The translations under genes were made by a program, and so were the position numbers. DNA of 63,978 nucleotides, filler included, from a bacterium (lineage in GTDB: Bacteria > UBA9089 > CG2-30-40-21 > SBAY01): the NCBI GenBank assembly GCA_040757115.1. It is 7 parts of 7 records of this genome, joined end to end, with 100 filler letters (N's around TTAATTAATTAA, not from the genome) between each part and the next. Parts side by side here need not be neighbours in the genome. Positions count along the whole stretch, not along the records: positions 23,505 to 52,701 come from JBFLYA010000024.1; 6 more parts are not named here. One strand, written 5' to 3'. This document shows, piece after piece, positions 5,816 through 60,374 of the stretch. The notes below the pieces were generated by a model. It made no database searches. It was not told the origin of the DNA and saw only the letters and a list, made by a program, of their open reading frames with translations. Positions within the stretch are counted from its first letter, which is position 1, and each line of letters starts with the position of its first letter.

Positions 5816-5915
5816 NNNNNNNNNNNNNNNNNNNNNNNNNNNNNNNNNNNNNNNNNNNNTTAATTAATTAANNNNNNNNNNNNNNNNNNNNNNNNNNNNN
5901 NNNNNNNNNNNNNNN
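5816..5915. other. Artificial contig linker
   Basis: 100 nt of N with central TTAATTAATTAA (stops in all six frames). Confidence 0.97.
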
Positions 5916-6037
5916 TGTGGAAAACAACAAATTTCCATAAATTTCTATTAGTTTCTATTAATTTCAATTTTTTTAATAATATCTCCCTATCTCCTTAATC
6001 TCCACATCTCCTTTTGTTACACCACCTGAACGCTTAC
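5916..6037. mobile_element. Half of the 225-bp GTAA-ended MITE
   Basis: Matches the reverse complement of the start of 59993..60217; ends CCTGAACGCTTAC. Confidence 0.8.
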
Positions 6038-6193
6038 AAAAATCTGCGTCATACGAACTTTGGAACTTGGAATTTGGAATTTATTTGGTATTTGGTGCTT
6101 GTAATTTGGAATTTCTGCTTGGATGCTTACAATCCGTCCAGTAAAAGATATGGGTAAAGATTAAATATTTTGCTGGGGATGTATTCTTGTGGT

Positions 6194-11282: not shown

Positions 11283-11400
11283 CGGGGCTCGGGACTCGGG
11301 ACTCGGGGCTCGGGGCTCGGGACTCGGGGCTCGGGACTCGGGGCTCGGGACTCGGGAATAAAAGAATTCCTTAACCCTTAAATCCGAACCCCGAACCCCG
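11283..11400. repeat. Heptamer tandem repeat (CGGGRCT)n with inverted (CCCGAAC) partner
   Basis: About 10 heptamers; related block at 58246-58313. Confidence 0.85.
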
Positions 11401-11607
11401 ATTTTCAGGGGAAACGGACATGAGCCAGGGCTCACAAAGGGCAATGAAAATGGGAGAAGGACAACCCCCTAACCCCCTTTATTAAGGGGGAATATGTGTT
11501 CTAAACCAGAGGATACGAGTCTGTGGATACTATACTAATTCGCTAATCTCTAATTCACTAATTCGCTATTTTCAGGGGAAACGCTCATGAGTCTGCGACT
11601 CACAAAG
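11401..11607 (+). mobile_element. AGG(A/G)GAA-core mini-element units (family A)
   Basis: Near-identical inverted copy of about 42990..43196. Confidence 0.8.
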
Positions 11608-11704
11608 TCTTATGGTGAAATGTCAAGTAAAAAATTAAGTTTTTTTAAAAATATTTTTCTTGACTTATATCCCTAAAAAGGCACAAAAATAGTATGTTCG
11701 GATA
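11601..11704 (+). mobile_element. End of an unidentified multicopy element
   Basis: Identical to sequence starting at 58392; both copies run into a contig break. Confidence 0.65.
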
Positions 11705-19949: not shown

Positions 19950-22106
19950 ATGTTCACCCTATTTTTTAAAATCAGGAAAATCTCGGTTAAAGAAATCTTA
20001 TTCAGAACTAAAAAATTAATTGGACAAAGATTAGAAATATGGGGACATACCCCATATTTAAAGCGGGAATATGGGATGTGTCCCCATATTCATCTTATAG
20101 AAAAAGATGAGATATTTAATACCTATTTGCCTCAAACAAGGTATATTCAGGAGGCAGATAAAATATGTGAACATAAGTTCGCATTATTAGGTATAAATGT
20201 CGAGTATAAAGATACGATTGAATGGCATAAACATCCGCTAACCAAACAGGAGTATCCACTAAAATTATATTCAAACATCTATAAATTCTTAAGCCATGGG
20301 GATGTAAAATATGTCTGGGAAATCAGCCGACATGAGCACTTTGTTTCCCTCGGATTAGCCTGGTGCCTGAGCGGGGATGAAAAATATCGCCGGGAATTTT
20401 GTGCTCAGATAACTGATTGGATAGATTCTAACCCTTATTTACTTGGTGTCAATTGGTCGAGTGGTTTAGAGGTAGCGCTACGGGCAATAAATTGGGTAAT
20501 GGCTTATAACCTCTTCTTAACATCTATAGATGCAGAGGTCCATTATAAGATTTTAAATAGCCTTTACCAGCACGGAAGATACCTTATCCGTAATCTGTCC
20601 TTTTTTTCAAGTCCGTATAACCATTTAATTGGAGAGGCAACGGCGCTTTTTATCTTAGGGTTTTTATTCCCGGGACTCAAAGAGGTAAATCAATGGAAAA
20701 AAACAGGCTGGCAAATACTTAAATCAGAACTTAAAAACCAGTTTTATGAAGATGGTGGCAATGTCGAACAGGCAGTATCCTATCACCATTACACATTAGG
20801 GTTTTATCTACTGGCGATTATCCTTCAGATGAAAAATGATATTGAGGTTGAGCCAGAGATTCTAAAGGCTATTGAGCGAGTGATGGAATTTTCTATGTAT
20901 CTAACAAAACCTGATAGTCGAATGCCAATGATTGGGGATGGGGATGGTGCTCGGTCAATTAAATTTGGTGTCGTAGATGACCATTGGGATTTTAGAACCT
21001 TTCTTTCAATCGGAGCAATTTTATTCAATCGTGGAGATTTTAAAAAGATAAGTGGTAAAATCAGTCAAGAGACAATATGGCTACTGGGTAGTGCTGGGCT
21101 AAAAAGATATGAGGCGATTTGCGAAAAAGCCGCAGAGCAAACCTCAATGGCGTTTTCTGCAAGTGGTTATTTTATTATGCGTAGTCACTGGGACAAAGAT
21201 GGGGATTATTTATGTTTTGATTGTGGCCAACAAGCCGCAGGACTTCATAAAGATGCAACACCATCCGTTGCCCATGGTCATGCTGATGCCCTTTCTCTGG
21301 AACTTGTAGTTAATGGGCAACCACTCATTATTGACCCGGGGATGTATTCATATTTTGATGAGCACTTTCAAAATTACTTTCGAGCCACACCCGCTCATAA
21401 TACGATTGTAATTGACCGTAAGTCTCAAGCCACATTAGTCGGCAAACTTGGCTGGAGTAATACCTATTCCACAAAATGTCAGAAATGGTTTACCTCTGAA
21501 CTTGCCGATTATGTGGAGGGGGAACACGATGGCTATGCCCCGATTATCCATAAAAGAATAATCTTTTTTAATAAATTGACTAAATACTGGCTTATTTTTG
21601 ATTACTTAGACGGAAAAGAAAAACATCTGATTGAACAATATTTCCACTTTGCACCGACCGCGATGGAAGTTAACAAAGAATCAATTGTTACTCAACATGC
21701 TTTACTTATGCCAATTAATCCAGATTTAGTCAATCTTGAAGTCGAAGAAGGCTGGGTAGCTAAAAATTATGGGGTGAAAATTAAAGCCCCGGTGGTAAAA
21801 TACTCCACAACATCAATATTACCCGCATCTCTGGGTGTGATAATCTATCCAACAGGGCTAAATCGTCCTAAGATAGAACAATTAAATAAACGGGCGTTTA
21901 AATTAATTACCCCTCATTGGATAGACTATCATTTACTCAGTAGAGATTGTGAAGGGATTGAAACAGATGCGAGATTTAGCCACATCCGATTCGATAATAA
22001 AGGAGATATTAAAGGATTTACCATCATTCAAGGCTCATTTTTAATGATTAATCAAAAGGAAATTTTTAGAACGACTCAATTAACAGATATGGTGAAAATA
22101 TTATGA
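19950..22106 (+). CDS. Heparinase II/III family protein
   Basis: KYVWEISR, NHLIGE, EQAVSYH, HGHADALS, IDPGMYSY, AHNTI; start moved to ATG 19950 (AGAGG SD). Confidence 0.88.
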   Translation: MFTLFFKIRKISVKEILFRTKKLIGQRLEIWGHTPYLKREYGMCPHIHLIEKDEIFNTYLPQTRYIQEADKICEHKFALLGINVEYKDTIEWHKHPLTKQEYPLKLYSNIYKFLSHGDVKYVWEISRHEHFVSLGLAWCLSGDEKYRREFCAQITDWIDSNPYLLGVNWSSGLEVALRAINWVMAYNLFLTSIDAEVHYKILNSLYQHGRYLIRNLSFFSSPYNHLIGEATALFILGFLFPGLKEVNQWKKTGWQILKSELKNQFYEDGGNVEQAVSYHHYTLGFYLLAIILQMKNDIEVEPEILKAIERVMEFSMYLTKPDSRMPMIGDGDGARSIKFGVVDDHWDFRTFLSIGAILFNRGDFKKISGKISQETIWLLGSAGLKRYEAICEKAAEQTSMAFSASGYFIMRSHWDKDGDYLCFDCGQQAAGLHKDATPSVAHGHADALSLELVVNGQPLIIDPGMYSYFDEHFQNYFRATPAHNTIVIDRKSQATLVGKLGWSNTYSTKCQKWFTSELADYVEGEHDGYAPIIHKRIIFFNKLTKYWLIFDYLDGKEKHLIEQYFHFAPTAMEVNKESIVTQHALLMPINPDLVNLEVEEGWVAKNYGVKIKAPVVKYSTTSILPASLGVIIYPTGLNRPKIEQLNKRAFKLITPHWIDYHLLSRDCEGIETDARFSHIRFDNKGDIKGFTIIQGSFLMINQKEIFRTTQLTDMVKIL

Positions 22107-23224
22107 TAACTACCATTTTATTCTTAATATCATTTATATGTCTTGGACACACTTACATCTTTTATCCGCTTATCCTCATACTATTATCTCTGGTAGCCAA
22201 AAAGGGTGTAGTTAGAGATGAGAATTTTTTACCAGCAGTTAGTTTGTTAGTCGCGGCTTATAATGAGGAAAGGATAATCAGAGAAAAGGTAGAAAATTCA
22301 CTTTCAATAGATTATCCAAAGGACAGATTAGAGATTATAATTGCCTCAGATGGTTCTACGGATAAAACTAACGAGATTGTGGCTGAGTATAAAGACATAA
22401 TATTAAAAGAGTTACCTCGAGCCGGGAAGATAACCGCCGTAAATAAAACCCTCCCACAGGCTACTGGTGAAATTATAGTTTTATCGGATGCTAACACAAT
22501 GTATGAAAAAGATGCCATAAAAAAGTTAATTCGTAATTTTAAAGATGAAACTGTAGGTGGGGTAACGGGTAAGGTCCTATTAATAAGTGAAAAAGCGACT
22601 TATGGCCAGGGAGAAAGTCTTTATGGTAAATATGAAAGATATATTCAGAAAAAAGAAAGTCAAATTTCTTCTATCATCGGCGTTGATGGGGCAATGTATG
22701 CTATCCGTAAAAATCTATTTAAACTAATTCCTCCGGAAATAATTTTAGATGATTTAGTTAATGGAATGAACATTGTCAAACAAGGATACCGCGTGATTTA
22801 TGATGAGTCTGCCGTTGGTTATGAAGATACCGCCGCGAGTAGTAAAGGTGAATTTATCCGGCGGGTCAGGGTATCTGGAGGTGGATTTCAGATGATAGTT
22901 AAAAATCAAGGTGTCCCGTCGATTAAACAGCCATTTTTCCTCTTCCAATTTATCTCTCATAAGTTATTTCGCTGGCTGACTCCATTTTCCCTCATTATCC
23001 TTTTTACAACTAATTTATTTTTAATAAATATAAATCTTTTTTATAAAATTTGTTTTGTTTGCCAGTCACTTTTTTATCTTCTGGCATTGATGGGTGGATT
23101 CTTCAAATTAAAGGCATTGGGAACACCATTTTATTTTTGTCTAATTCAGCTGGCATCGCTTATCGGTGTTTATCGACTCATCACGGGTAAATTAAGGGTT
23201 ACCTGGACCAAAGGGAGAGAATAA
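22103..23224 (+). CDS. Glycosyltransferase family 2 (IcaA/PgaC-like membrane GT)
   Basis: AAYNEE, SDGSTD, SDAN, LDD, SHKLFRW; ATGA overlap with the upstream gene. Confidence 0.9.
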   Translation: MITTILFLISFICLGHTYIFYPLILILLSLVAKKGVVRDENFLPAVSLLVAAYNEERIIREKVENSLSIDYPKDRLEIIIASDGSTDKTNEIVAEYKDIILKELPRAGKITAVNKTLPQATGEIIVLSDANTMYEKDAIKKLIRNFKDETVGGVTGKVLLISEKATYGQGESLYGKYERYIQKKESQISSIIGVDGAMYAIRKNLFKLIPPEIILDDLVNGMNIVKQGYRVIYDESAVGYEDTAASSKGEFIRRVRVSGGGFQMIVKNQGVPSIKQPFFLFQFISHKLFRWLTPFSLIILFTTNLFLININLFYKICFVCQSLFYLLALMGGFFKLKALGTPFYFCLIQLASLIGVYRLITGKLRVTWTKGRE

Positions 23225-23231
23225 TAAATAC

Positions 23232-23278
23232 AGGGGAAACCAGGCATGAACCTGCGGTTCACAAACGAGGATGAAAAT
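23232..23278 (+). mobile_element. Family A left end
   Basis: AGGGGAA..CATGAACC-TGC-GGTTCACAAACGAGGATGAAAAT. Confidence 0.7.
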
Positions 23279-23504: not shown

Positions 23505-24016
23505 CGCTCTAATCTATATTCGGTATTGTAAGGCTCTATTTTAATCCCCTGGATTACTACTGAACGATATCCTTTATGCCGTGCATCATCAGGCAAATCT
23601 CCTTTATACCTTACTACTTGCTGGTTATGAACCAAAATCTTGCCCAGCTTCTTTTCCTTTACAGATGGCTTCCTTTCCTTTGGTTCTATCCCGCTTTGAA
23701 AGTTGCTATTGCCTTGTTGATCCTCTGAAGGATTGTTCGGCTTAATCTTTGGTTTCGGATTACACCCTTTTAACCTTGCTATCTCATCCCTTAATCGTTG
23801 AATCGTATCTTTTAGTTCCCTATTCTCTTTCACCAAATATTCTATCTGGCTCATCAATCGATAGATTAACTTCTTGAAATCGTAATCAGACGAGATCTTA
23901 TCTACATCAATTTCAAAAAGAGTGTCATCTCTGTTTTCCATTCCACTCTATATATCGGCATTTTTTCAAAAAATCTTCACTTTTTTATACTATTCCACAA
24001 ATTTATGAGTAGTTAC
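23505..24016 (-). mobile_element. IS66-like element: left end plus N-terminal transposase (CDS starts 23941), cut by the contig end
   Basis: Coiled coil LRDEIARLKG..KPKIKP then LPDDARHKGYRSVVIQ; terminus GTAACTACTCA at 24016. Confidence 0.7.
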
Positions 24017-24062
24017 CATTTTCTGTCCATACTTGCTCATGCCACTGGCTCATGAGCAAGTA

Positions 24063-24223: not shown

Positions 24224-24483
24224 ATTTTCATCTTCCTTTGTGCCCACTCCTTGTGGGCATGAGTGTTTCCCCTGAAAATAGGCTGAAGGCTGAAGGGTAT
24301 AGGCTGAAGTTTTGAACGCTGTTTCCTTCAGCCTTCAGCCTTTATTTTCATTGTCATTTGTGAGTCGCAGACTCATGAGCGTTTCCCCTGAAAATGTCTG
24401 TAAGTTATTGTAATTGCTTGATTTACAAAACTACATTTTCATCGTCATTTGTGCCCTGCAAGGGCATGAGCGTTTCTCCTCCT
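24224..24483 (-). mobile_element. Tandem array of three family A units
   Basis: Three hairpin ends separated by different 40-65 nt inserts; starts at AAAAGGAGGAGAA. Confidence 0.8.
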
Positions 24484-24653
24484 TTTGTCGATATTATGTT
24501 TAGATATTTTCATCTGAGACCTCCTTTGTCGATTAGTTAAATTTATCTACTTTACTTAATCGACATCTGGAGGTCTTTTATTTAATTTTTTCTTAAGTCA
24601 GTGCCATTCGGGTAAACCCCAGTTTGTTTTATAGTGGAGCATCTGTTTAAATT

Positions 24654-41424: not shown

Positions 41425-42183
41425 GTGAGTCAAGAGAAACTCAAAAATAACTCTCAAATGGACATAAACCCTCCTATTTCCTTCCAAGAAGGTCCTCTAA
41501 TTGTAAAAGAGATAAGAAATTGGGAGGAAAAGTTGTGTGTTTATCGTTTAAGACATAAGGTCTTTTGTGAAGAATTGAAATGGGTTCCCTGCACAAAAGA
41601 TAAACTGGAAATAGATGAGTATGACCAAAAATCTGTCCTCTTCGGTGTCTTTGATACGACGACCTTAAAGCCGAATAAGAAACTCCTCGCGTGCTTGAGA
41701 CTTATTCTCCCAGAAAGCGATTTTATGTTAGAGAGAGAATTCTCCTGCCTCATTGAGCCAGGGTATCATATAAGGAAGGAAAATGATACCGTAGAAATTT
41801 CAAGATTATCCGTAGCACCTGAGGCAAGAGGTAAAATATTATCCCATAATTTTAACTTTTACTATGTCTCTTTTCTCCTCTATAAAGGAATCTATCTCTG
41901 GAGTATTATACATAATATAAAGTATTTTTACATAGTGGTGGAATTAAAATTTTATCGGCTATTGCGCATCATGGGATTTTCTTGTAGAGCGATAGGAAAG
42001 CCTGAAGTAATGGAGGATAGGGTTATCGCCATAGCAGCAATATTATCTCGGAGAGATTTTGAGGTATTAAATGAAAGTAGAAATCCGGCGATGATAAGAT
42101 GGTTTAGTCAATATCAATCAAACCCTGCTCAAGAGCAATGGCAACACACTGAGCCCTATTTACTGCATCAAGCTTTTGCATAA
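41425..42183 (+). CDS. luxI: LuxI-family acyl-homoserine-lactone synthase
   Basis: YRLRHKVFCEELKW, LEIDEYD, CLRL, VEISRLSV conserved residues; start GTG 41425 or ATG 41458. Confidence 0.88.
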   Translation: MSQEKLKNNSQMDINPPISFQEGPLIVKEIRNWEEKLCVYRLRHKVFCEELKWVPCTKDKLEIDEYDQKSVLFGVFDTTTLKPNKKLLACLRLILPESDFMLEREFSCLIEPGYHIRKENDTVEISRLSVAPEARGKILSHNFNFYYVSFLLYKGIYLWSIIHNIKYFYIVVELKFYRLLRIMGFSCRAIGKPEVMEDRVIAIAAILSRRDFEVLNESRNPAMIRWFSQYQSNPAQEQWQHTEPYLLHQAFA

Positions 42184-42859
42184 TATTTTGCAGATGAAAG
42201 ATTACAGTCCGTTCACTAATCTCCAAAATCATTGATATTTCCCAGGAAGTCTTCCCTTCTTTTATCCAATTAATTACCTCTTTTTCTCGAGGGGAGAGAT
42301 GAATTTCTCTTTTCTTTCCCAAGGAGATTACCCGAGTGAGTGCGTGGTGAAAATGCGGAATAATTTGGCAAAGGATAATTTCGGTACGCTCATTATGCTC
42401 TACAGATTTTCCCCCGATAGAAAATAGACTCCCTTTGTGTGAAGAAAAATCTCGTAATCCATATGTATAACCTTCTCCCAGATTAAAAGACTCTGCTGTA
42501 TATAGAAAATCTTTCGGCGGAGGGTTTCTTTTATAAGTTTCTATCCAATACTGTAGTCTGTAGTTTAAAAAATTTTCTTTAAAGATCGGGTCAACTTTAT
42601 AATATTTTCTTTCCAGATAAATTTTTAACCACTCCTCAGGATAGCTTATATTTATAAGTTTAGAAGAAGGGATCCACAAGTCTATCGTTGTGTTTTTCTT
42701 AAGAGTGCATAATAAAGAAATGGCATGGTCGTAAGGCAGTATTAGATTTAACTTCTGAATTAACTTTTTTAAGTCCTCTTCATTATTACAGGAAAGACTT
42801 TCCTCAATTAATTCTAAAAGACAGATAGTATCTTGTTTGGATAATAAATTCTTCAACAT
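42104..42859 (-). CDS. luxR: LuxR-family AHL-binding regulator
   Basis: YPEEW..Y, VDP, W and G autoinducer-binding residues; LSPREKEV.W..EGKTSWEI HTH. ATG 42859 preferred because 42886 lies within a repeat. Confidence 0.93.
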   Translation of the reverse strand: MLKNLLSKQDTICLLELIEESLSCNNEEDLKKLIQKLNLILPYDHAISLLCTLKKNTTIDLWIPSSKLINISYPEEWLKIYLERKYYKVDPIFKENFLNYRLQYWIETYKRNPPPKDFLYTAESFNLGEGYTYGLRDFSSHKGSLFSIGGKSVEHNERTEIILCQIIPHFHHALTRVISLGKKREIHLSPREKEVINWIKEGKTSWEISMILEISERTVIFHLQNIMQKLDAVNRAQCVAIALEQGLIDID

Positions 42860-42860
42860 A

Positions 42861-43363
42861 TTCCCCTGAAAATGTTCGTAACTCATTGTAATTCCTTGAT
42901 TTACAAAACTACATTTTCATCGTCCTTCTCCTGAAAATGTGTGTAAGTTATTGTAATTGCTTGAGTTACAAAATTACATTTTCATCGTCCTTTGTGAGTC
43001 GCAGACTCATGAGCGTTTCCCCTGAAAATAGCGAATTAGTGAATTAGAGATTAGCGAATTAGTATAGTATCCACAGACTCGTATCCTCTGGTTTAGAACA
43101 CATATTCCCCCTTAATAAAGGGAGTTAGGGGGTTGTCCTTCTCCCATTTTCATTGCCCTTTGTGAGCCCTGGCTCATGTCCGTTTCCCCTGAAAATAGCG
43201 AATTAGTGAATTAGAGATTAGCGAATTAGTATAGTATCCACAGACTCGTATCCTCTGGTTTAGAACACATATTCCCCCTTAATAAAGGGAGTTAGGGGGT
43301 TGTCCTTCTCCCATTTTCATTGCCCTTTGTGAGCCCTGGCTCATGTCCGTTTCTCCTGAAGAT
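42861..43363 (-). mobile_element. Tandem array of four family A units, including a 167-bp duplication (43014-43180, 43181-43347)
   Basis: Five AGG(A/G)GAA cores, the last directly before the luxR ATG. Confidence 0.85.
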
Positions 43364-43441
43364 ATTTATGTGCCATAATAACCCATTCTTTAGCATCCTC
43401 TTCTGAAAATTCTACAGTAGAATCATAATCACCTCTTCCCT

Positions 43442-44065
43442 TTACCATGTGACCAAATCCTCATCAAAATCCAGATGGCAGGTATCATTAAAGACTAAAA
43501 CGCAAGGAAATTCTTTATAAAAACTTATGATTGTTACCGCACTATTCTTAAGTGAGATAGACCATACCTTGTTTAAATTCATCTCTAATAAATGGGCTAA
43601 ATAAGTAGTAATCACGCCGCCATGTGTGACGACAAGAACCTGTTGGTCAGGATGTTTTGTCCTGATTTCATCGAATACTCGGACGACCCGCTCTTTAAAT
43701 TCTAAAAGTGTCTCTGCACCGGGGATTCTTACTTCTAATGGTTTTTGATACCATTCCTTATATAGTTCTTTGTTTTCTTTTCGGACTTGATTTATAGTTT
43801 TTCCTTCCCAGATACCCAGTTTGATTTCATGCAAGTCTTGATGGATAAGAATATCGTTTTTAGAATTAGTTAAAATCTTAGCGGTCTGGTAGGCACGACT
43901 TAAATGACTGCTATAAACCGCATCAAATTTCGTTCCATTAAACCGCTGAGCCAGGAGTTGCGATTGTCTATATCCTTTTTCACTTAATTTAGGATTTCTT
44001 ATTCCTTGCACTCGGTTTAATTTATTCCATGTAGATTCACTATGTCGGACCAAGATTAATTTCAT
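43442..44065 (-). CDS. Histidine phosphatase (GpmB/CobC/PspA-like)
   Basis: MKLILVRHSE, SSHLSRAYQTA, VVTHGG, FNDTCHL. Confidence 0.9.
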   Translation of the reverse strand: MKLILVRHSESTWNKLNRVQGIRNPKLSEKGYRQSQLLAQRFNGTKFDAVYSSHLSRAYQTAKILTNSKNDILIHQDLHEIKLGIWEGKTINQVRKENKELYKEWYQKPLEVRIPGAETLLEFKERVVRVFDEIRTKHPDQQVLVVTHGGVITTYLAHLLEMNLNKVWSISLKNSAVTIISFYKEFPCVLVFNDTCHLDFDEDLVTW

Positions 44066-44069
44066 GTTA

Positions 44070-44228
44070 TTTTCCTGAAAATAGACTACAGACCATAGAC
44101 CAAAGAAAATCGGAACTTGGGGAAGGCTGGTAGCCGCAGGCTTCAGCCTGATTTCACCTGAACCATCAAACTCATTTTCATCTTCGTTTGTGCCTACTCC
44201 CTGTGGGCATGACCGTTCTCCTGAAAAT
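44070..44228 (-). mobile_element. Single family A unit at the phosphatase ribosome-binding site
   Basis: AGGAGAA-hairpin-ATGAAAAT-insert-ATTTTC-AGGAAAA-TAAC-ATG. Confidence 0.75.
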
Positions 44229-44243
44229 AGAAGTGATACTTCG

Positions 44244-46442
44244 TTATTCTTCAAGTCTGATTTTATCAAATTCCTCCAGATTCTCTTCTTCAGCAGGCGT
44301 GATTGAAGAAGAAACCGTTTCTGTTCCTTGTTCCAGAATACCTTCTTCTGTATGGAGATGACAATATTCAGTTGGGGAATTGCCTTCAATAAATATCTCT
44401 GACCTGGTTTTGGGACAATATTTCGTTGCCAATAAACCGGTAGTTGGGTCAACTGTTGCAAAGGTAACCCCGGTGGGAACCGTGAAATCCTGTATTTCCA
44501 ACAAATGCTGGATTTTTTCCATAAAAGTTGTCCAGATAGGTGCGGCAACGACTCCGCCTGCCTGACCATAACCTAATGTTCGCTGGCCACGGTCATATCC
44601 AATCCAGACACTTGCTACTAATTCTGGTGTAAAACCAATAAACCAGGCATCAACATAATCATTAGTTGTGCCAGTTTTACCAGCAACAACTCTATTTATA
44701 TGGTTTCCAACCGAATATTTTGCCGTGCCTCGTGTTACTACCCCTTCCAGCAAATTGGTAATTATGTAGGCTGTTTGCGGTGAAAGCACCCTTTCCTCAT
44801 CAGGTGTTCTTTCTTCTAATATATTTTGATTATGGTCTTTGAGACATTTTATAGCAATCGGGTCAACCTTAATTCCCTGGTTAGCAAAGATACCAAAAGC
44901 CATTGTCATTTCTAATGGGGTGACCACCTTTGTTCCCAGTGCCAGTGATAAATCCTGCTCAAATTTACCTTTAATCCCCATCCGACGGGCATATTCAATT
45001 ACCTTTCGGACACCTACCTTTTCCAACAAATCAATCGTGGCTAAATTAAGCGAATATTCCAGAGCAGACCTTAATGTCACCTTACCATGATAATTACCTT
45101 CATAATTACTTGGTTCCCAAACCTGTCCTTCTTTAACCCCTTGATAGGTTCTGGGAGAATCATCTAAAATACTTATTGGTGTAAATCCCTCGTCAATAGC
45201 CGCGGCATAAATAAATGGTTTAAATGCAGACCCTGCTTGCCTTCTGGCATATATTCGATTTAACTGATTCTCGTAGGAAAAACCACTTCCGCCAACCATT
45301 GCCTTGATATAGCCATTTCTGGGGTCAATGGCTAAAAGTGCTCCTTCTATTTGTGGTTCACCTGATTTCTTCGCTTGATTTAATTGCCTTAATCCATCCT
45401 GAAGAACCTGGGATGCCGCTTCTTGCATCTCTAAATCTAAAGTCGTATAAACATTTAAACCAGCGGTATAAAGTGCATTACTCCCATATTCTTCCTCGAG
45501 TATTTGTCGGATATACTCCGTAAAATAAGGGGCTTTATTAATACTTGTTTTTGTTTTGGCAAATTTTTTTTTAGATATAATCTCTACCTGAGTGGCAAAT
45601 GCCTTTTGTGCCATCTCCCTTTGTTCAGAATTAATAAATCCTTCTTCTTCCATTCGTTTTAAGACAAATGCCTGGCGATTGATTGCTCTTTTGGGATAAA
45701 CAAGGGGTGAATAACGGACAGGTGAACCTGGCAGACCAGCAAGCATAGCAATTTCAGGTAATTTTAACTCCTTGACCCGCTTATCAAAATAATACATTGC
45801 CCCAGCCTGAACTCCATAGTTACCATGGCCATAATATATTTTATTAAAATATCTCTCTAAAATTTCATCTTTAGTTAATTTCTGCTCAATCAAAAGAGCG
45901 ATTAATATCTCTTGTATTTTTCGACGATAAGTTCGTTCCTGGGTTAAAAACAGATTTTTTGCCAATTGTTGGGTAATCGTGCTGCCACCCTGGGTTATTT
46001 TACGGTGACGAATATTAGCCACAAACGCCCTTAAAACACCAAAGATATCTACCCCTTTATGTTTATAAAATTGATTATCTTCGACAGCAATCACGGCATC
46101 TTTTAATGTTTGAGGGATGCTTTCGAGACTGACTAATTCTCTTTTTTCTTCGGCAAATTCCGCAATTACTTCATTATTTAAAGAATAAAGTTTAGTTGGA
46201 ATTTTCCAGACTTCTATACCTTCATATTTTAAAATAGGCTCTAAATTAGGTAGATGTGTTAGAAAGGAGACAATTATTCCTCCTCCCATTCCAGCAATGA
46301 TAAATATACTTAATAAACACCCAATCAAGATAAATTTTGGGATAGGTCCTAATTGTCGTTTTGACTTTTTAGTCTTAACCACTGAAGGGTAAATAGTTGT
46401 TGGCATTGTTCTGTAATATTTATGTCTTCGTCGTTTAAACAT
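44244..46442 (-). CDS. Class A penicillin-binding protein (PBP1A)
   Basis: EDNQFY.H.G, GGSTITQQL, SAFK, SLN, KTG; start ATG 46442. Confidence 0.93.
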   Translation of the reverse strand: MFKRRRHKYYRTMPTTIYPSVVKTKKSKRQLGPIPKFILIGCLLSIFIIAGMGGGIIVSFLTHLPNLEPILKYEGIEVWKIPTKLYSLNNEVIAEFAEEKRELVSLESIPQTLKDAVIAVEDNQFYKHKGVDIFGVLRAFVANIRHRKITQGGSTITQQLAKNLFLTQERTYRRKIQEILIALLIEQKLTKDEILERYFNKIYYGHGNYGVQAGAMYYFDKRVKELKLPEIAMLAGLPGSPVRYSPLVYPKRAINRQAFVLKRMEEEGFINSEQREMAQKAFATQVEIISKKKFAKTKTSINKAPYFTEYIRQILEEEYGSNALYTAGLNVYTTLDLEMQEAASQVLQDGLRQLNQAKKSGEPQIEGALLAIDPRNGYIKAMVGGSGFSYENQLNRIYARRQAGSAFKPFIYAAAIDEGFTPISILDDSPRTYQGVKEGQVWEPSNYEGNYHGKVTLRSALEYSLNLATIDLLEKVGVRKVIEYARRMGIKGKFEQDLSLALGTKVVTPLEMTMAFGIFANQGIKVDPIAIKCLKDHNQNILEERTPDEERVLSPQTAYIITNLLEGVVTRGTAKYSVGNHINRVVAGKTGTTNDYVDAWFIGFTPELVASVWIGYDRGQRTLGYGQAGGVVAAPIWTTFMEKIQHLLEIQDFTVPTGVTFATVDPTTGLLATKYCPKTRSEIFIEGNSPTEYCHLHTEEGILEQGTETVSSSITPAEEENLEEFDKIRLEE

Positions 46443-46444
46443 AG

Positions 46445-46586
46445 TTCTCCTGAAAATAGGAAGTAGAGAGTAGAAAGTAAAGAAAACATCACTCCTCACG
46501 CCTATCTCCTTACCTCCCACCTCCTATCTCCTACCACTATTTTCATCCTCCTTTGTGTCCACCCTGTGGACATAAGCGTTTCTCCT
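46445..46586 (-). mobile_element. Single family A unit at the PBP1A ribosome-binding site
   Basis: AGGAGAA directly repeated at both ends, 2 nt before the ATG. Confidence 0.8.
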
Positions 46587-46592
46587 TCGTTT

Positions 46593-47519
46593 TTACAAAT
46601 TCCGAAAATAAACCCTTGTCGTTATCGTAATTCCATTAAAATAATCTTCATCTATCTTACCATCCAGATCATTATCCATCCCATCTATTACATCTTCTTG
46701 TATTGCCCCATCTCTATCATCATCACTATCCACTTTTAAAGTAATCATTATCAGTTCAATCTGCCTTATTTTACTAAGTCCAGTTGGAATTCCTGCCGGA
46801 AGTTCTTCATCTGAAGTAAAATACCTGAATTCTAATTGACTAATATCTCTTGAAATTAATGTTGCACTACCTTGTTGATTCCAGGAGCCCGCTGAATTTT
46901 TATGATAGATAGTTTTGTATAATTCACCCTGCTGATAGATTCTACCATTTCTTAGTTCGTTAATTTGTTTAAATTCATACCTAACAGCCAAACCATAATC
47001 ATCGCCCAGAGGATTATTCGCTAAAAGGAGAGAAGTCGTGCCTTCTGGATTATCGGAGTCATAGGGCGAGATAACCGTAATCGTTGGAATCCCTTTTTTT
47101 AAATCGGTAGTAGTAGGAGACCCTTGATTAATTATTGCAAAATCTGTGTGGATAGTATTAGTGCTTTCACAAAATCCATTCTGGCTATCAACAATCCCAT
47201 AACCTATAATAATAGAATTTGTTCCTAAGGTAATTGGTTGCTCCACATCAAATTGTGGTCCATAAATAGAATATCCTCCTCTTAAAGTAGATAATACTCC
47301 TTGTTTTTCAAAATCTGTTCTACCCTCTTCTCCTTCTAAAATCAATTTTACTATTTCTTGAGGTTCAGTAGGAACGCCTTTTACCATAAAATCCATCCCC
47401 TGCCTCATAAATAAAATAACAACCATCGCTATTACTGCCAGGATACCTGCTCCGACAATAAATTCTAAGAGGGTAGTTCCTTGTTCTTTATTTTTTAGAA
47501 ATACAAGTGGATACTTCAC
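46593..47519 (-). CDS. Minor pilin/pseudopilin (PilW-like)
   Basis: G|TTLLE prepilin motif; C-terminal DxDxDG acidic motifs. Confidence 0.7.
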   Translation of the reverse strand: MKYPLVFLKNKEQGTTLLEFIVGAGILAVIAMVVILFMRQGMDFMVKGVPTEPQEIVKLILEGEEGRTDFEKQGVLSTLRGGYSIYGPQFDVEQPITLGTNSIIIGYGIVDSQNGFCESTNTIHTDFAIINQGSPTTTDLKKGIPTITVISPYDSDNPEGTTSLLLANNPLGDDYGLAVRYEFKQINELRNGRIYQQGELYKTIYHKNSAGSWNQQGSATLISRDISQLEFRYFTSDEELPAGIPTGLSKIRQIELIMITLKVDSDDDRDGAIQEDVIDGMDNDLDGKIDEDYFNGITITTRVYFRNL

Positions 47520-50810: not shown

Positions 50811-50978
50811 TTTAACTTACCTCCTTTTCTCCCTTTCCCTCTCATTTAGTATAATACCATATAAAATATGAAAAGTCAAGCGAAAAAAAATTCAACCTGT
50901 GAAATAGGAATATTTTGAGCGTGGTTAGTATAAGAAGGGGGATAAGGGGATAAAGGAGATATGGAGATTATAAATTCT

Positions 50979-51412
50979 GTAACCGTTCAGCCTTGCCCAT
51001 CAAACTGTCCAATATTAACTCAAAACTTAAAACTATAGCGGTTATTAACTGGAAGTTTACATAGGATAATACCCATAAATAAGGCATGAGAATAATCGTT
51101 CCGTTAGGAACATAATATCGGTAGGAATAGATAGACAAATCAATCAGTTCCGTAGGAACGATATATTGGTAGAAAATTTAATTCTAAGTAAAGTTTTGAA
51201 TAATAACTGCTATAATGTCCTCCATTCAGCCACTGATTATCACGGATTAATACAAATAGAATAGAATGAGTTAAAATATGAAAGATAACAGAGGATATTA
51301 TTTATACAAGTATTGGTGCAAAATAGTTTTGAGTTTTAAGTTGTAGTTTTGAGTTTTGCGTTTTGAGATTTGAGTTATAGGGACATATTTTTATCTATAC
51401 CTGAACGGTTAC
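50979..51412. mobile_element. Nested MITE mosaic
   Basis: GTAACCGTTCAG/CTGAACGGTTAC outer ends; inner TATAGCGGTTATT/AATAACTGCTATA element (51034-51214). Confidence 0.65.
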
Positions 51413-52801: not shown

Positions 52802-52922
52802 GAAATTGATTGTGGAAAACAACAAATTTCCATAAATTTCTATTAATTTCAATTTTTTTAATAATATCTCCCTATCTCCTTAATCTCCACATCTCCTTTT
52901 GTTACACCACCTGAACGCTTAC
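52802..52922. mobile_element. Half of the 225-bp GTAA-ended MITE
   Basis: Near-identical to 5916..6037. Confidence 0.8.
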
Positions 52923-52939
52923 TAAAAATCAGAGGGAAA

Positions 52940-55234: not shown

Positions 55235-55288
55235 GATAGGATAAGGGTAACTGTTCAGCCACTGATTTCATCTGTGGCTAAATATGTG

Positions 55289-55535
55289 GTAACCGTTCAC
55301 CGCACAGATACAGAGACGCAGAGAAAAACAGACCCCTAATCCCTCTCAAGAGGGGAAAATCAAAAATTAAATATTAAAATGCAAAATGACATATCAAATA
55401 TCAAAAATCTTGACTTCGTGTTTAATTTATTGCCTTACAAGTACTTTTGCATTTTACTTTGTCATTTTGCTTTTTACATTTTGATATTTGCATTAAACTC
55501 TGCGTCTCTGCGGAAATTACCACCTGAACGGTTAC
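55289..55535. mobile_element. GTAA-ended MITE with exact 8-bp target duplication
   Basis: GTAACCGTTCA/TGAACGGTTAC ends flanked by AATATGTG on both sides. Confidence 0.9.
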
Positions 55536-55567
55536 AATATGTGGATTAAATTTTGGAGGGGGAGACA

Positions 55568-58238: not shown

Positions 58239-58391
58239 AAATAAAGGGACTCGGGACTCGGGATTCGGGACTCGGGAATAAAGGAATCCCCTAATCCCGA
58301 ACCCCGAACCCCGATTTTCAGGAGAAAGGAAGTTTCACGCCAAGCACGCAAAGAACGCAAAGGAAAATAAGGGAAAAAACTACCTTTAGGG

Positions 58392-58746: not shown

Positions 58747-59053
58747 TAATAGAAATTTATGGAAATTTGTTGTTTTCCCCAATCAATTTCTACCTATTTC
58801 TATAAATTTCAATCTATTTCTATTATCTTATCTCCATATCACTCTTATCTCCTTATCCCCTTTCTTACACTTTTGATATATAGCCTGAACGGTTACTTAG
58901 TTTTAAGGTTTTGAGATAAGGTTTTGAGTTATGACATTTGAGTTTTGAGTTAATATTGTCCCATTTGATGGACACGGCTGAACGGTTACAAAAAAAGATA
59001 TTTTCCTCTCTGTTTCTCTGCGTCTCTGCGGTAAAGGATTACCTGAATGATTA
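58747..59053 (+). repeat. ~307-bp direct repeat, copy 1
   Basis: Nearly identical to 60068..60374. Confidence 0.9.
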
Positions 59054-59233
59054 TCCTATTCGTAATGGTCTTTGGGGTCAGACTTCAAAAGCAGAATTAA
59101 TCAAGTTAATTCTGTTCGAGGTCTGACCCCACCATCTTTTCCCTTTTCTTCTTAATCAATGTCCGACCATAACTCACTCCCTTTTATATGTGTTAAGTAA
59201 AATGTCTTCGCTACTTTTCTCTACCTACTCTAT

Positions 59234-59503
59234 CTATTTCCTCTCTATCTGTGGGTGGGTTCCAACCCATTTAAGAAAGTAGGTGTTGCTTTCGATAGAA
59301 AACAAGCATCGATAATAATCATCTACATAAAATTCCCACAATCCTTTGATACTTTCGAATCGATGAATCTTTAGCGATGGATGTTTTGGGTCATTTAACA
59401 AAAACCTTACTTGTTTTTCAAACTTCCTTTTGATATATTCGGGTAGGGCTGCATAATATTTATCGAAATTATCATCTTTGGCAATTTTTCTTTCACCTGG
59501 CAT
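59234..59503 (-). CDS. RelE/ParE-superfamily toxin
   Basis: 89 aa, PKHPSLKIH..LWEFYVDDYYR..VGTH; overlaps the upstream small gene. Confidence 0.75.
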   Translation of the reverse strand: MPGERKIAKDDNFDKYYAALPEYIKRKFEKQVRFLLNDPKHPSLKIHRFESIKGLWEFYVDDYYRCLFSIESNTYFLKWVGTHPQIERK

Positions 59504-59741
59504 TATTCAAATCCTTCAGCAAGTCCTCAGCATCTGTATATTCTTTGAACTTACCTGCTTTATAGTTTACCTCTGCTTTTGCTAATGCTTTTTGGACCTC
59601 GGGAGTGTGAACATAGAGTTCTCTCTTTGGGATTTTTTTAGTAAATGTAATCAAGACTTGCATATCCGAATTGTACGGCACATCTTCCTGGGGAATGACA
59701 ATCCCATTATGATATACCCCTTCCATTGTCAATTGTGACAT
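59493..59741 (-). CDS. Antitoxin (AF2212/DUF104-like N-terminus)
   Basis: EGVYHNGIVIP motif, acidic tail, GAGGAGG SD. Confidence 0.7.
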   Translation of the reverse strand: MSQLTMEGVYHNGIVIPQEDVPYNSDMQVLITFTKKIPKRELYVHTPEVQKALAKAEVNYKAGKFKEYTDAEDLLKDLNNAR

Positions 59742-59992
59742 TAACGATCACCTCCTCATTTTGTCTTTTTGCGGAATTAGTGTACCTGTTTAGCGTGGTC
59801 AGAGAGCACAAATGAATGGTACTGACTTAGTGCGAAACCACTTCAAACACAACAAGTTGTGTAATACAAAATCAAAAATTAAATATTAAAATGCAAAATG
59901 ACATATCAAATATCATATCAAAAATCAAAGAGCAAATATCAAAATTAAGGAATTCTTTTATTCTTATTTTTGATTTTTAATATTTGATTTTT

Positions 59993-60217
59993 GTAAGCGT
60001 TCAGGTGGTGTAACAAAAGGAGATGTGGAGATTAAGGAGATAGGGAGATATTATAAAAAATTGAAATTAATAGAAATTTATGGAAATTTGTTGTTTTCCC
60101 CAATCAATTTCTACCTATTTCTATAAATTTCAATCTATTTCTATTATCTTATCTCCATATCACTCTTATCTCCTTATCCCCTTTCTTACACTTTTGATAT
60201 ATAGCCTGAACGGTTAC
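59993..60217. mobile_element. Complete 225-bp GTAA-ended MITE
   Basis: GTAAGCGTTCAGG/CCTGAACGGTTAC ends; halves at four contig ends. Confidence 0.85.
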
Positions 60218-60374
60218 TTAGTTTTAAGGTTTTGAGATAAGGTTTTGAGTTATGACATTTGAGTTTTGAGTTAATATTGTCCCATTTGATGGACATGGCT
60301 GAACGGTTACAAAAAAAGATATTTTCCTCTCTGTTTCTCTGCGTCTCTGCGGTAAAGGATTACCTGAACGATTA
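60068..60374 (+). repeat. ~307-bp direct repeat, copy 2
   Basis: Nearly identical to 58747..59053. Confidence 0.9.

Follow-up and report, generated by a model that had tools for sequence, protein, structure and literature searches.

Why does each of three consecutive genes of an uncultivated groundwater bacterium begin within a few nucleotides of the same kind of structured repeat, and what are these repeats? The question arises at positions 42,861 to 46,586 of the 63,978-base stretch of DNA analysed here (the window; 35% G+C), where genes for a PBP1A, a histidine phosphatase and a LuxR-type receptor follow each other on the minus strand and are preceded by repeat units that read on the same strand. 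A first-pass annotation had described these units as mini-elements bounded by Shine-Dalgarno (SD)-like cores and had proposed that they belong to a site-specific element that targets ribosome-binding sites (RBSs). The unit boundaries that it defined are confirmed by our analysis, as is the head-to-tail stacking of the units. They form a lineage-restricted, high-copy family, and we think it fairly probable that this family consists of modular, non-autonomous intergenic repeat cassettes that are reshuffled by recombination and slippage and persist through a function in sense mRNA.

Read on the gene strand, such a cassette has four parts: an SD-like core of the form AGGRGAA, a conserved leader of ~40 nt with a hairpin of 6-7 bp, a purine-rich linker that ends in GAUGAAAAU, and a long hairpin module of 7-nt repeats closed by UGAAAAU/AUUUUCA. 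We refer to core, small hairpin and linker together as the junction unit (J) and to the long hairpin that follows as the module. Units are 65-190 nt long, and none of them contains an open reading frame (ORF). Terminal inverted repeats are absent from the unit as a whole, with TGAAAAT/ATTTTCA flanking the module only, and the two cores that flank one unit often differ (AGGAGAA/AGGAAAA, AGAAGAA/AGGGGAA). At the 5' ends of arrays the core is often degenerate (AGAAGAA, AGCAGAA or TGGAAAA), which disfavors a strict target-site duplication. Two other readings of the unit were ruled out. A mini-ORF that starts at the ATG of the hairpin cannot encode a conserved peptide, as loops vary from 3 to 5 nt and throw it out of frame, and an intron-like arrangement of the ends (...AAAAU / ...UUUUCAG) is at odds with the small size of the modules and their lack of a conserved 5' end.

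The 13-mer ATTTTCAGGRGAA, allowing one mismatch, occurs 13 times in the window compared with a mean of 0.69 in 100 shuffles, none of which reached 13. A covariance model of the junction (R1), trained on an alignment (A1) of 86 distinct junctions, detects 11 copies in the window at E <= 1.4e-6, at positions 11401, 11568, 23226, 24224, 24344, 24435, 42978, 43146, 43313, 44174 and 46539. It thereby recovers, each in its place, all eleven hairpin ends of the first-pass annotation, though the matches at eight of these are by construction because these copies were training sequences. The compensatory stems of 6-7 bp described earlier are real: across the 86 distinct junctions, 93.3% of stem cells pair as opposed to 69.7 +/- 1.3% in shuffles, and 111 cells carry double changes versus 38.8 in shuffles, while slid controls pair at 24-49%. 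Most stems have all standard pairs (58/86), with one mismatch in 23/86 and two or more in only 5/86. Searches against Rfam returned only a tRNA above gathering thresholds in the window and no match at E <= 1 in 42800-44300.

The window itself is only a small sample of this family. In the nearest genome, which serves as our comparison strain (G001; 4.7 Mb in 770 contigs, with 39% of sampled words in common with the window), the exact 13-mer occurs 198 times and its reversed control not once. Among 60 relatives, G003 of another genus in the same family follows with 34 copies, and the other 58 have 0-7, with controls at 0-2. At E <= 0.001, R1 has matches in 11 of 40 relatives including all five genomes of the family, with 147 in G001 (the ceiling, as all 147 candidates scored), 42 in G004, 36 in G003 and 4 in G005, the latter and G004 being further members of the family like G002; six genomes have 2 or 1 and 29 have none. 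At the stricter E <= 1e-4, matches are found in 9 of 24 genomes of the phylum. Genomes with low copy numbers keep a central part, GAAAC-N3-CATG-stem-CACAAAGG-NGGATGAAAAT, with new compensated stems and usually with the downstream ATTTTCAG, and their "core" is ATGAA or AAGAA and thus no SD. In the distant relative G026, for instance, a 343-aa radical-SAM-like ORF begins with its ATG immediately after ATTTTCAG, without an intervening SD (locus L221, ~1788-1800). The high copy number is also apparent from Logan contigs of a groundwater metagenome that contain the window stretch: in the best-matching run, the summed unitig depth of module bins is 8,900-52,000 compared with 305 for flanking genes (29-170x). 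Among the papers listed on Desantisbacteria and repeats, we found no description of such repeats in this phylum.

At the locus itself, the PBP1A gene (ORF 44244-46442) is assigned by comparison of its protein, which is 70-71% identical to proteins of unclassified metagenome-assembled genomes (MAGs) and 54-56% identical to those of Candidatus Desantisbacteria, while the phosphatase and luxR genes are assigned by domain matches. The J upstream of PBP1A (46539..46592, minus strand; R1 58.4 bits, E 1.2e-10) begins 6 nt past the stop of the upstream ORF (46593-47519) and comprises core AGGAGAA, spacer ACGCTTA, hairpin TGTCCAC/GTGGACA, which also forms in the predicted RNA fold, and a linker of CAAAGGAGG and ATGAAAAT. 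It is followed by module M1 (46458..46538, minus), predicted to fold into a long imperfect hairpin with UGAAAAU/AUUUUCA closing, a purine-rich 5' arm (GGTAGGAGATAGG...) and a 3' arm of CTCTACT/CTTTACT heptamers; M1 belongs to the commonest module family in G001 and has the highest summed Logan depth (~52,000). The 3' junction of ATTTTC and core AGGAGAA (46445..46457, minus) is separated by CT from the ATG at 46442, and this core is likely the Shine-Dalgarno sequence of PBP1A. Removal of the unit indeed leaves stop-AAACGA-AGGAGAA-CT-ATG, as had been pointed out before.

Just past the PBP1A stop lies a small hairpin, GAAGT-ATC-ACTTC, followed by ATTTTC (44229..44241, minus), which looks like a terminator and has a 7-bp stem in G001. 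The next J (44174..44228, minus; 54.8 bits) has a hairpin with one mismatch, TGCCCAC/GTAGGCA, and leads into a module of the GAGTTTGATGG...GGTCTAT-heptamer family (44083..44173, minus), a 3' junction of ATTTTC and core AGGAAAA (44070..44082, minus), TAAC and the ATG (44065) of the histidine phosphatase gene (43442-44065, minus; PF00300, E 3.7e-58). Between this gene and luxR, Unit A is present as two tandem copies that are identical at 165/167 positions, the first (43197..43363, minus) composed of a J with hairpin TGAGCC/GGCTCA (43313-43363) and module M2 (43197-43312) and the second at 43030..43196 (minus), which is identical at 166/167 positions to a dispersed copy at 11401-11567 on the plus strand. 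Unit B (42939..43029, minus; 74.4 bits) has a J with TGAGTC/GACTCA (42978-43029) and the short module M3 (GTAATTTTGTAA...TTACACAC), and a truncated unit without hairpin (42861..42938, minus) contains core AGGAGAA, GGACGATGAAAAT and a second M3 module, with a weak partial R1 match at 42913-42938. The last junction, ATTTTCAGGGGAA (core 42861-42873), is followed by T and the ATG of luxR (42104-42859), so that the last core precedes the ATG by 2, 4 and 1 nt at PBP1A, the phosphatase gene and luxR, respectively, as the earlier description had it.

The product of luxR has the domains Autoind_bind and GerE. Its longest ORF (260 aa) begins at 42886 and hence inside the array, though the start at 42859 (251 aa) fits the domain layout better. 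The gene is convergent with and overlaps a gene for a LuxI-type autoinducer synthase (41425-42183, plus).

What the first-pass annotation called a variable insert is located inside the unit as described but is not simply variable, because the inserts can be grouped into roughly twelve families of long hairpins made of 7-nt repeats, which recur at many G001 loci. Each of these modules is an imperfect hairpin with the invariant TGAAAAT/ATTTTCA as its closing helix, purine-rich in the 5' half and pyrimidine-rich in the 3' half. The 99 unique modules average 110 nt in length and fold with a mean minimum free energy (MFE) of -30.4 kcal/mol when read with the gene, as against -26.0 when read antisense and -19.2 after shuffling, and the sense strand folds more stably in 63 of them. 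The 7-nt periodicity appears as an identity of 0.383 at lag 7, which rises to 0.449 over the final 40 nt and compares with 0.27-0.31 at neighboring lags; at lag 14 it is 0.347, and the remaining lags from 1 to 15 give 0.24-0.32. A tandem heptamer pair is contained in 65 of the 99 modules. In the predicted fold of the PBP1A leader, both the small hairpin and the long stem form (MFE -46.6 kcal/mol, z -3.6) and leave GGAGAA unpaired immediately 3' of the long stem; a second leader has a z of -2.9. The cassettes probably act in mRNA: the long stems resemble those that RNase III cuts in the intervening sequences (IVS) of 23S rRNA and may accordingly separate or stabilize cistrons, and the core, single-stranded just 3' of the stem, would serve as ribosome-binding site. 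If so, the arrays would be transcribed in sense, the long stems would be cut in pairs, and 5' ends would lie close to AUUUUCAGGAG.

The position of the cassettes relative to genes was studied in the window and in 40 stretches of G001 and 20 of G003 that were picked for containing the 13-mer, and the proportions given here therefore describe arrays and not the genome. Among 123 matches to the 13-mer in the G001 stretches and the window, 56 run into the next hairpin unit and 36 are followed by an ORF of at least 60 aa that starts within 0-15 nt, with a spacing of 1-9 nt in most cases and two ORFs that look spurious; the other 31 lead into other sequence, in most cases a further module or, at a greater distance, a second SD. 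Around 29% of the sampled junctions thus abut a start codon, or 36 of the 67 that do not lead into another hairpin unit, and the placement of the last core at Shine-Dalgarno distance that had been seen at three genes extends genome-wide in G001 and G003. A 300-nt open-frame check of 81 arrays from the 60 stretches and the window found the downstream coding strand to be the same as that of the array in 48 cases, opposite in 2 and undetermined in 31, with 42, 2 and 37 for the upstream coding strand. Because window genes without arrays have GGAGG-type SDs 5-10 nt upstream, AGGRGAA at a spacing of 1-9 nt is a credible though weaker SD.

Comparison of the two strains reveals rapid turnover. The genes of G001 are 96-99% identical to those of the window; the intergenic cassettes differ. 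In the gap between PBP1A and phosphatase, with flanking genes that are 97-98% identical, the strains agree in the left-hand ATTTTCAGGAGAACGGTCATG and the right-hand ATTTTCAGGAAAATAACATG, but the hairpin and module between these belong to different families. Downstream of the phosphatase gene they diverge after AGGRGAAACGG, with 3.5 units and luxR in the window and a single unit and a different gene in G001, a change of neighbor that the assembly may have produced. The first module downstream of queH is common to both strains except for 56 nt (8 heptamers) that the window has in addition in the first arm, and divergence sets in directly past AGGGGAAAC. At 3/3 strain-polymorphic sites the strains diverge within ~8 nt past the core, in line with the cassette-like exchange that had been suggested earlier, and two more intergenic regions are unrelated between the strains while lying between genes that are 98-99% identical. 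At one orthologous gene junction (L215, L225-L227), G003, G004 and G005 each have a different heptamer hairpin and G002 has ~560 nt that include a junction unit, with the types CACAGAA, CAGTAGA and TAGGACC represented across the genera, indicating that heptamer hairpins turn over across the whole family.

At 45 internal junctions, the modules on either side, the hairpin type, the spacer, the linker and the R of the core occur in changing combinations. Some hairpins are themselves chimeric, e.g., TGCCCC-tgc-GGCTCA, and the breakpoints of the mosaic are spread along the junction including the hairpin loop and the linker. They do not coincide at the single crossover point that site-specific recombination as first envisaged would use, and homology-driven exchange or template switching among ~200 similar copies fits better. 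In three runs, Logan contigs end at the repeats; the joints observed link one repeat to another, and none of them is clean or gives usable evidence of excision or circles. The cassettes would owe their spread and reshuffling chiefly to replication slippage and to recombination or template switching inside the conserved junction, without a recombinase of their own, and their persistence to a function in sense mRNA.

Several observations weigh against this interpretation. The bias of folding toward the sense strand is modest (63/99) and module copies are not independent, and one of the three leaders folds no better than its shuffles (z -0.42), though the stretch began inside its J hairpin. Divergence at all three polymorphic sites begins just past the core, as a site-specific model predicts, so that a site-specific component may contribute, and the homology shared on the right-hand side of a swap, ~13 nt, is little for RecA-type recombination, so that a dedicated enzyme may be involved. 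Among relatives with an unoccupied orthologous site, none is similar enough to reveal how a cassette arrives. Furthermore, the analyzed stretches are pre-selected for 13-mer content, and all genomes are short-read MAGs with contigs that break at repeats, so that the long-range order of arrays may be chimeric.

A site-specific mobile element acting at AGGRGAA cores, either IS110/IS1111-like with a bridge RNA or integron-like and with its enzyme provided in trans, nevertheless seems unlikely to us. Such an element would regenerate the core on both sides, and the internal ATTTTC-core-ACG would represent joined ends. This would agree with the core that bounds every unit, with internal junctions that resemble a right end joined to a left end and with the onset of divergence between the strains close to the core, and G001 does encode two matches to IS110-type (DEDD, PF01548) and nine to Y1-type (PF01797) transposases. 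Elements of the IS110/IS1111 group have a short core at both ends, are not known to carry long terminal inverted repeats, favor targets that are repeated or structured and encode a DEDD transposase together with a guide RNA of roughly 150-200 nt. By contrast, no unit contains a DEDD transposase gene (PF01548 with PF02371) or any other ORF, and no DEDD gene or guide RNA was found associated with the units. Both IS110 loci of G001 lack the junction motif in their fetched flanks, where no stretch matches the 22-nt junction within 5 mismatches (by sequence match only). Hence neither the recombination of IS110 type that the first-pass annotation had favored nor the full element with a DEDD transposase and the same ends that it had proposed to look for could be substantiated.

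The same is true of the Y1 transposases, since neither the junction motif nor a J hairpin is present at the six of nine Y1 loci of G001 that were fetched, unlike what would be expected of repetitive extragenic palindromic (REP) sequences or bacterial interspersed mosaic elements (BIMEs) with their REP-associated tyrosine transposases (RAYTs). The site-specific alternative is further at odds with breakpoints in the hairpin loop and linker, with the often degenerate cores at array 5' ends as opposed to the 3' core, with the dispersal of arrays over more than 80 loci rather than on one platform, and with the "core" of distant relatives that is no SD. An integron platform does not match the 81 separate arrays found between housekeeping genes, though intI was not searched for, and classical miniature inverted-repeat transposable elements (MITEs) differ from the units in that the latter have no terminal inverted repeats and unequal flanking cores, with no parent insertion sequence found. 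We similarly give little credence to the idea that the junction, with its SD-like core, its compensated hairpin and GAUGAAAAU ... AUUUUCAG, is the site at which a dedicated recombination system, which could be hairpin-recognising or RNA-guided, inserts or swaps cassettes at RBSs. If true, it would mean a genome-wide, integron-like shuffling of translation-initiation regions with the leaders of well over 100 genes open to rewiring between strains.

It is improbable that the units are gene-less derivatives of 23S-IVS-type cassettes (S23p/Avd-like) that were mobilized via an RNA intermediate and a reverse transcriptase. The 23S-IVS protein family PF05635, to which the Avd protein of diversity-generating retroelements presumably belongs as well, is present in multiple copies (39 matches in G001, 14 in G003 and 11-22 in sister genera), and RVT_1 genes are found in 5/5 genomes of the family. 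At the 12 intergenic loci examined (nine of G001 and three of G003, among L193-L212), the PF05635 gene is wedged between housekeeping genes and in most cases enclosed by inverted arms of a copy-specific heptamer, much like a module. However, the junction unit and ATTTTCAGG are absent from all 12 of them, the modules have no ORF, the numbers of PF05635 (11-39) and reverse transcriptase genes (1-5) do not track those of junction copies (198, 34, <=3), and nothing points to retro-mobility. In Coxiella, according to PMC4990558, the ends of the 23S rRNA IVS pair into a stem in which heptamers vary in number where RNase III acts, and RNase III excises this stem. By analogy to these heptamers we infer that the modules are RNase III-type stems in mRNA, though unlike the 23S IVS they are ORF-less, lie in mRNA spacers instead of rRNA and come with an extra junction unit.

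That the cassettes are immobile cis-regulatory RNA leaders that evolved in place, e.g., as attenuators, thermosensors or protein-binding sites, is quite improbable. Their locked orientation, the conserved hairpin with compensatory changes and the maintenance of the central 40 nt in other families of the phylum would all be expected of such leaders, yet there is no Rfam match, copies that are identical at 165-166/167 positions precede unrelated genes, copy number varies 50-fold from one sister genus to another, the two strains have swapped modules at one and the same site and many units lie mid-array far from any start codon. Finally, an artefact of repeats collapsed or chimerically joined in short-read MAGs, to which the ends of window contigs and of many G001 contigs in repeats and the change of neighbor across one array (a UDPGP-like gene in G001 in place of the window's luxR) might point, is extremely improbable given single units anchored by unique genes on both sides in two assemblies, the same architecture in a third genome of another genus and unitigs of an independent contig set that cover the junctions.

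Modular intergenic repeats that bear an RBS are already known in bacteria, and what is new here is the family. None of the systems compared is related to it in sequence, and none of them joins an SD-bearing structured junction with exchangeable, stacked heptamer hairpins. Enterobacterial BIMEs, which are mosaics of REP sequences, and the BOX elements of Streptococcus pneumoniae are modular hairpin mosaics in intergenic regions, often within operons and with copy numbers that vary between strains, and the cassettes resemble them in this mosaic build. BIME and BOX elements are not known to supply an SD, and REPs are tied to RAYT (Y1) transposases; for the cassettes, no such tie was found at the six Y1 loci mentioned above, and their junctions are direct instead of alternating in orientation. 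Mycobacterial interspersed repetitive units (MIRUs) are tandem units of 40-100 bp between the genes of operons that are oriented with transcription and have ends that meet stop and start signals. They are read as small ORFs coupled to their neighbors, a possibility that the shifted frames exclude for the cassettes.

The closest functional parallel are the REP2 repeats of Neisseria and the plasmid repeats IR-A and IR-B of Borrelia, which are described as dispersed intergenic repeats of 120-150 bp without terminal inverted repeats that lie immediately upstream of ORFs, carry an RBS and two stem-loops and are of unknown origin and spread (Delihas 2011, PMC3184786). The cassettes, ending just upstream of ORFs and carrying an RBS, belong to the same class by function only and have no sequence relation. 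According to the same account, REP2 repeats number ~26, are single and contain a promoter (PMC3184786), whereas the 150-200 copies described here are stacked and unlike REP2 have exchangeable heptamer-hairpin modules and lie mostly between co-directional genes. The tandem 7-nt periodicity of the modules in intergenic DNA also places them among heptameric simple-sequence repeats such as the cyanobacterial short tandemly repeated repetitive (STRR) sequences and the TAACTGA repeats of Beggiatoaceae, which, according to MacGregor 2015 (PMC4679880), are tandem 7-nt repeats between genes, mostly a few nt before starts, with a patchy phyletic distribution and a suggested post-transcriptional role. 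As portrayed there, STRR and TAACTGA repeats consist of one heptamer in direct repeats, in contrast to the many heptamers that form inverted hairpin arms between structured junctions in the cassettes.

Other arrays of the family are found elsewhere in the window, which strings together several MAG contigs, separated by N...TTAATTAATTAA...N spacers, and has its breaks near 5816, 11705, 23500, 52702 and 58514, several of them inside the studied repeats. Downstream of queH, an array at 11284..11608 (plus) opens with a heptamer hairpin with arms CGGGACT/CCCGAAC and continues with a J (11401-11451), module M2 and a J that is cut (11568-11608). Another J (23226..23278, plus) with hairpin TGAACC/GGTTCA and a module of the GTAACCGTTCAGG type lies directly past the stop of a glycosyltransferase ORF (22103-23224, plus), and a heptamer hairpin after argS (58243..58326, plus) ends in ATTTTCAGGAGAA and is followed by a module without J hairpin. 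An array of three J (24224..24486, minus; J at 24435-24486, 24344-24395 and 24224-24279) contains modules M3 and GGCTGAA/TTCAGCC, and its last J is followed by a non-coding module of ~210 nt that is interrupted by an IS66-family element. The transposase gene of this element (23542-24017, minus; PF03050 in homologs that are 82-86% identical) is cut by the contig end. We rejected the element as parent of the units and read it as an insertion into a long module, because its left end GTAACTACTCAT lies ~210 nt downstream of the J unit and its right end ...GAGCAGTTAC is not followed by ATTTTCAGG; its ends are unrelated to the junction. The N-terminal part of the IS66-type ORF was not found in G001 or G003, and a metagenome scan with a full-length homolog found no relative. 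One type of J always precedes a long non-coding module, TTTGCTTGAATTTCC..., at five G001 loci and in a diverged copy of the window. The idea of a "full-length" element here was dropped; all copies of this module run into contig ends. The sequence TCTTATGGTG... after the hairpin at two contig ends of the window turned out to be a dispersed intergenic repeat and not part of a larger element.

The window also contains repeats of other kinds. A second family with 16 matches (at 50978-51400, 55246-55523 and 58884-60363 and elsewhere) has inverted GTAAC(C/G)GTTCAGG ends (GTAACCGTTCAGG) that bound other hairpin modules. Its members are probably MITEs derived from the IS66-family element, because their termini resemble the ends of the latter (GTAAC...). 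High-copy repeats at 5916-6043 and 52802-52930, which are the same element at contig starts, and at 51031-51181 are each 97-100% identical to more than ten loci of G001. Compared with positions 55235-55552, G001 (C135) has an extra hairpin element with inverted ends CTGTGATTCAGAC... and flanked by the direct repeat ATAAGGGT, and this resembles the insertion of a MITE that duplicated 8 bp of its target.

For genome analysis of this lineage, the cassettes have practical consequences in that they are a main cause of MAG fragmentation here (many of the 770 contigs of G001 end in them) and that gene callers may mis-set start codons inside arrays, as with luxR at 42886 instead of the likely 42859. 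The 52-nt junction motif with its compensated stems has no Rfam entry and could become an Rfam family, and the presence of heptamer-armed hairpins alongside multi-copy S23p/IVS genes bears on the reason for the frequency of 7-nt repeats between bacterial genes. The leaders, and probably the RBSs, of well over a hundred genes come from this one repeat family, and should the cassettes influence how mRNA is stabilized, processed or translated, they would add a rapidly evolving layer of variation in gene expression to this uncultivated phylum.

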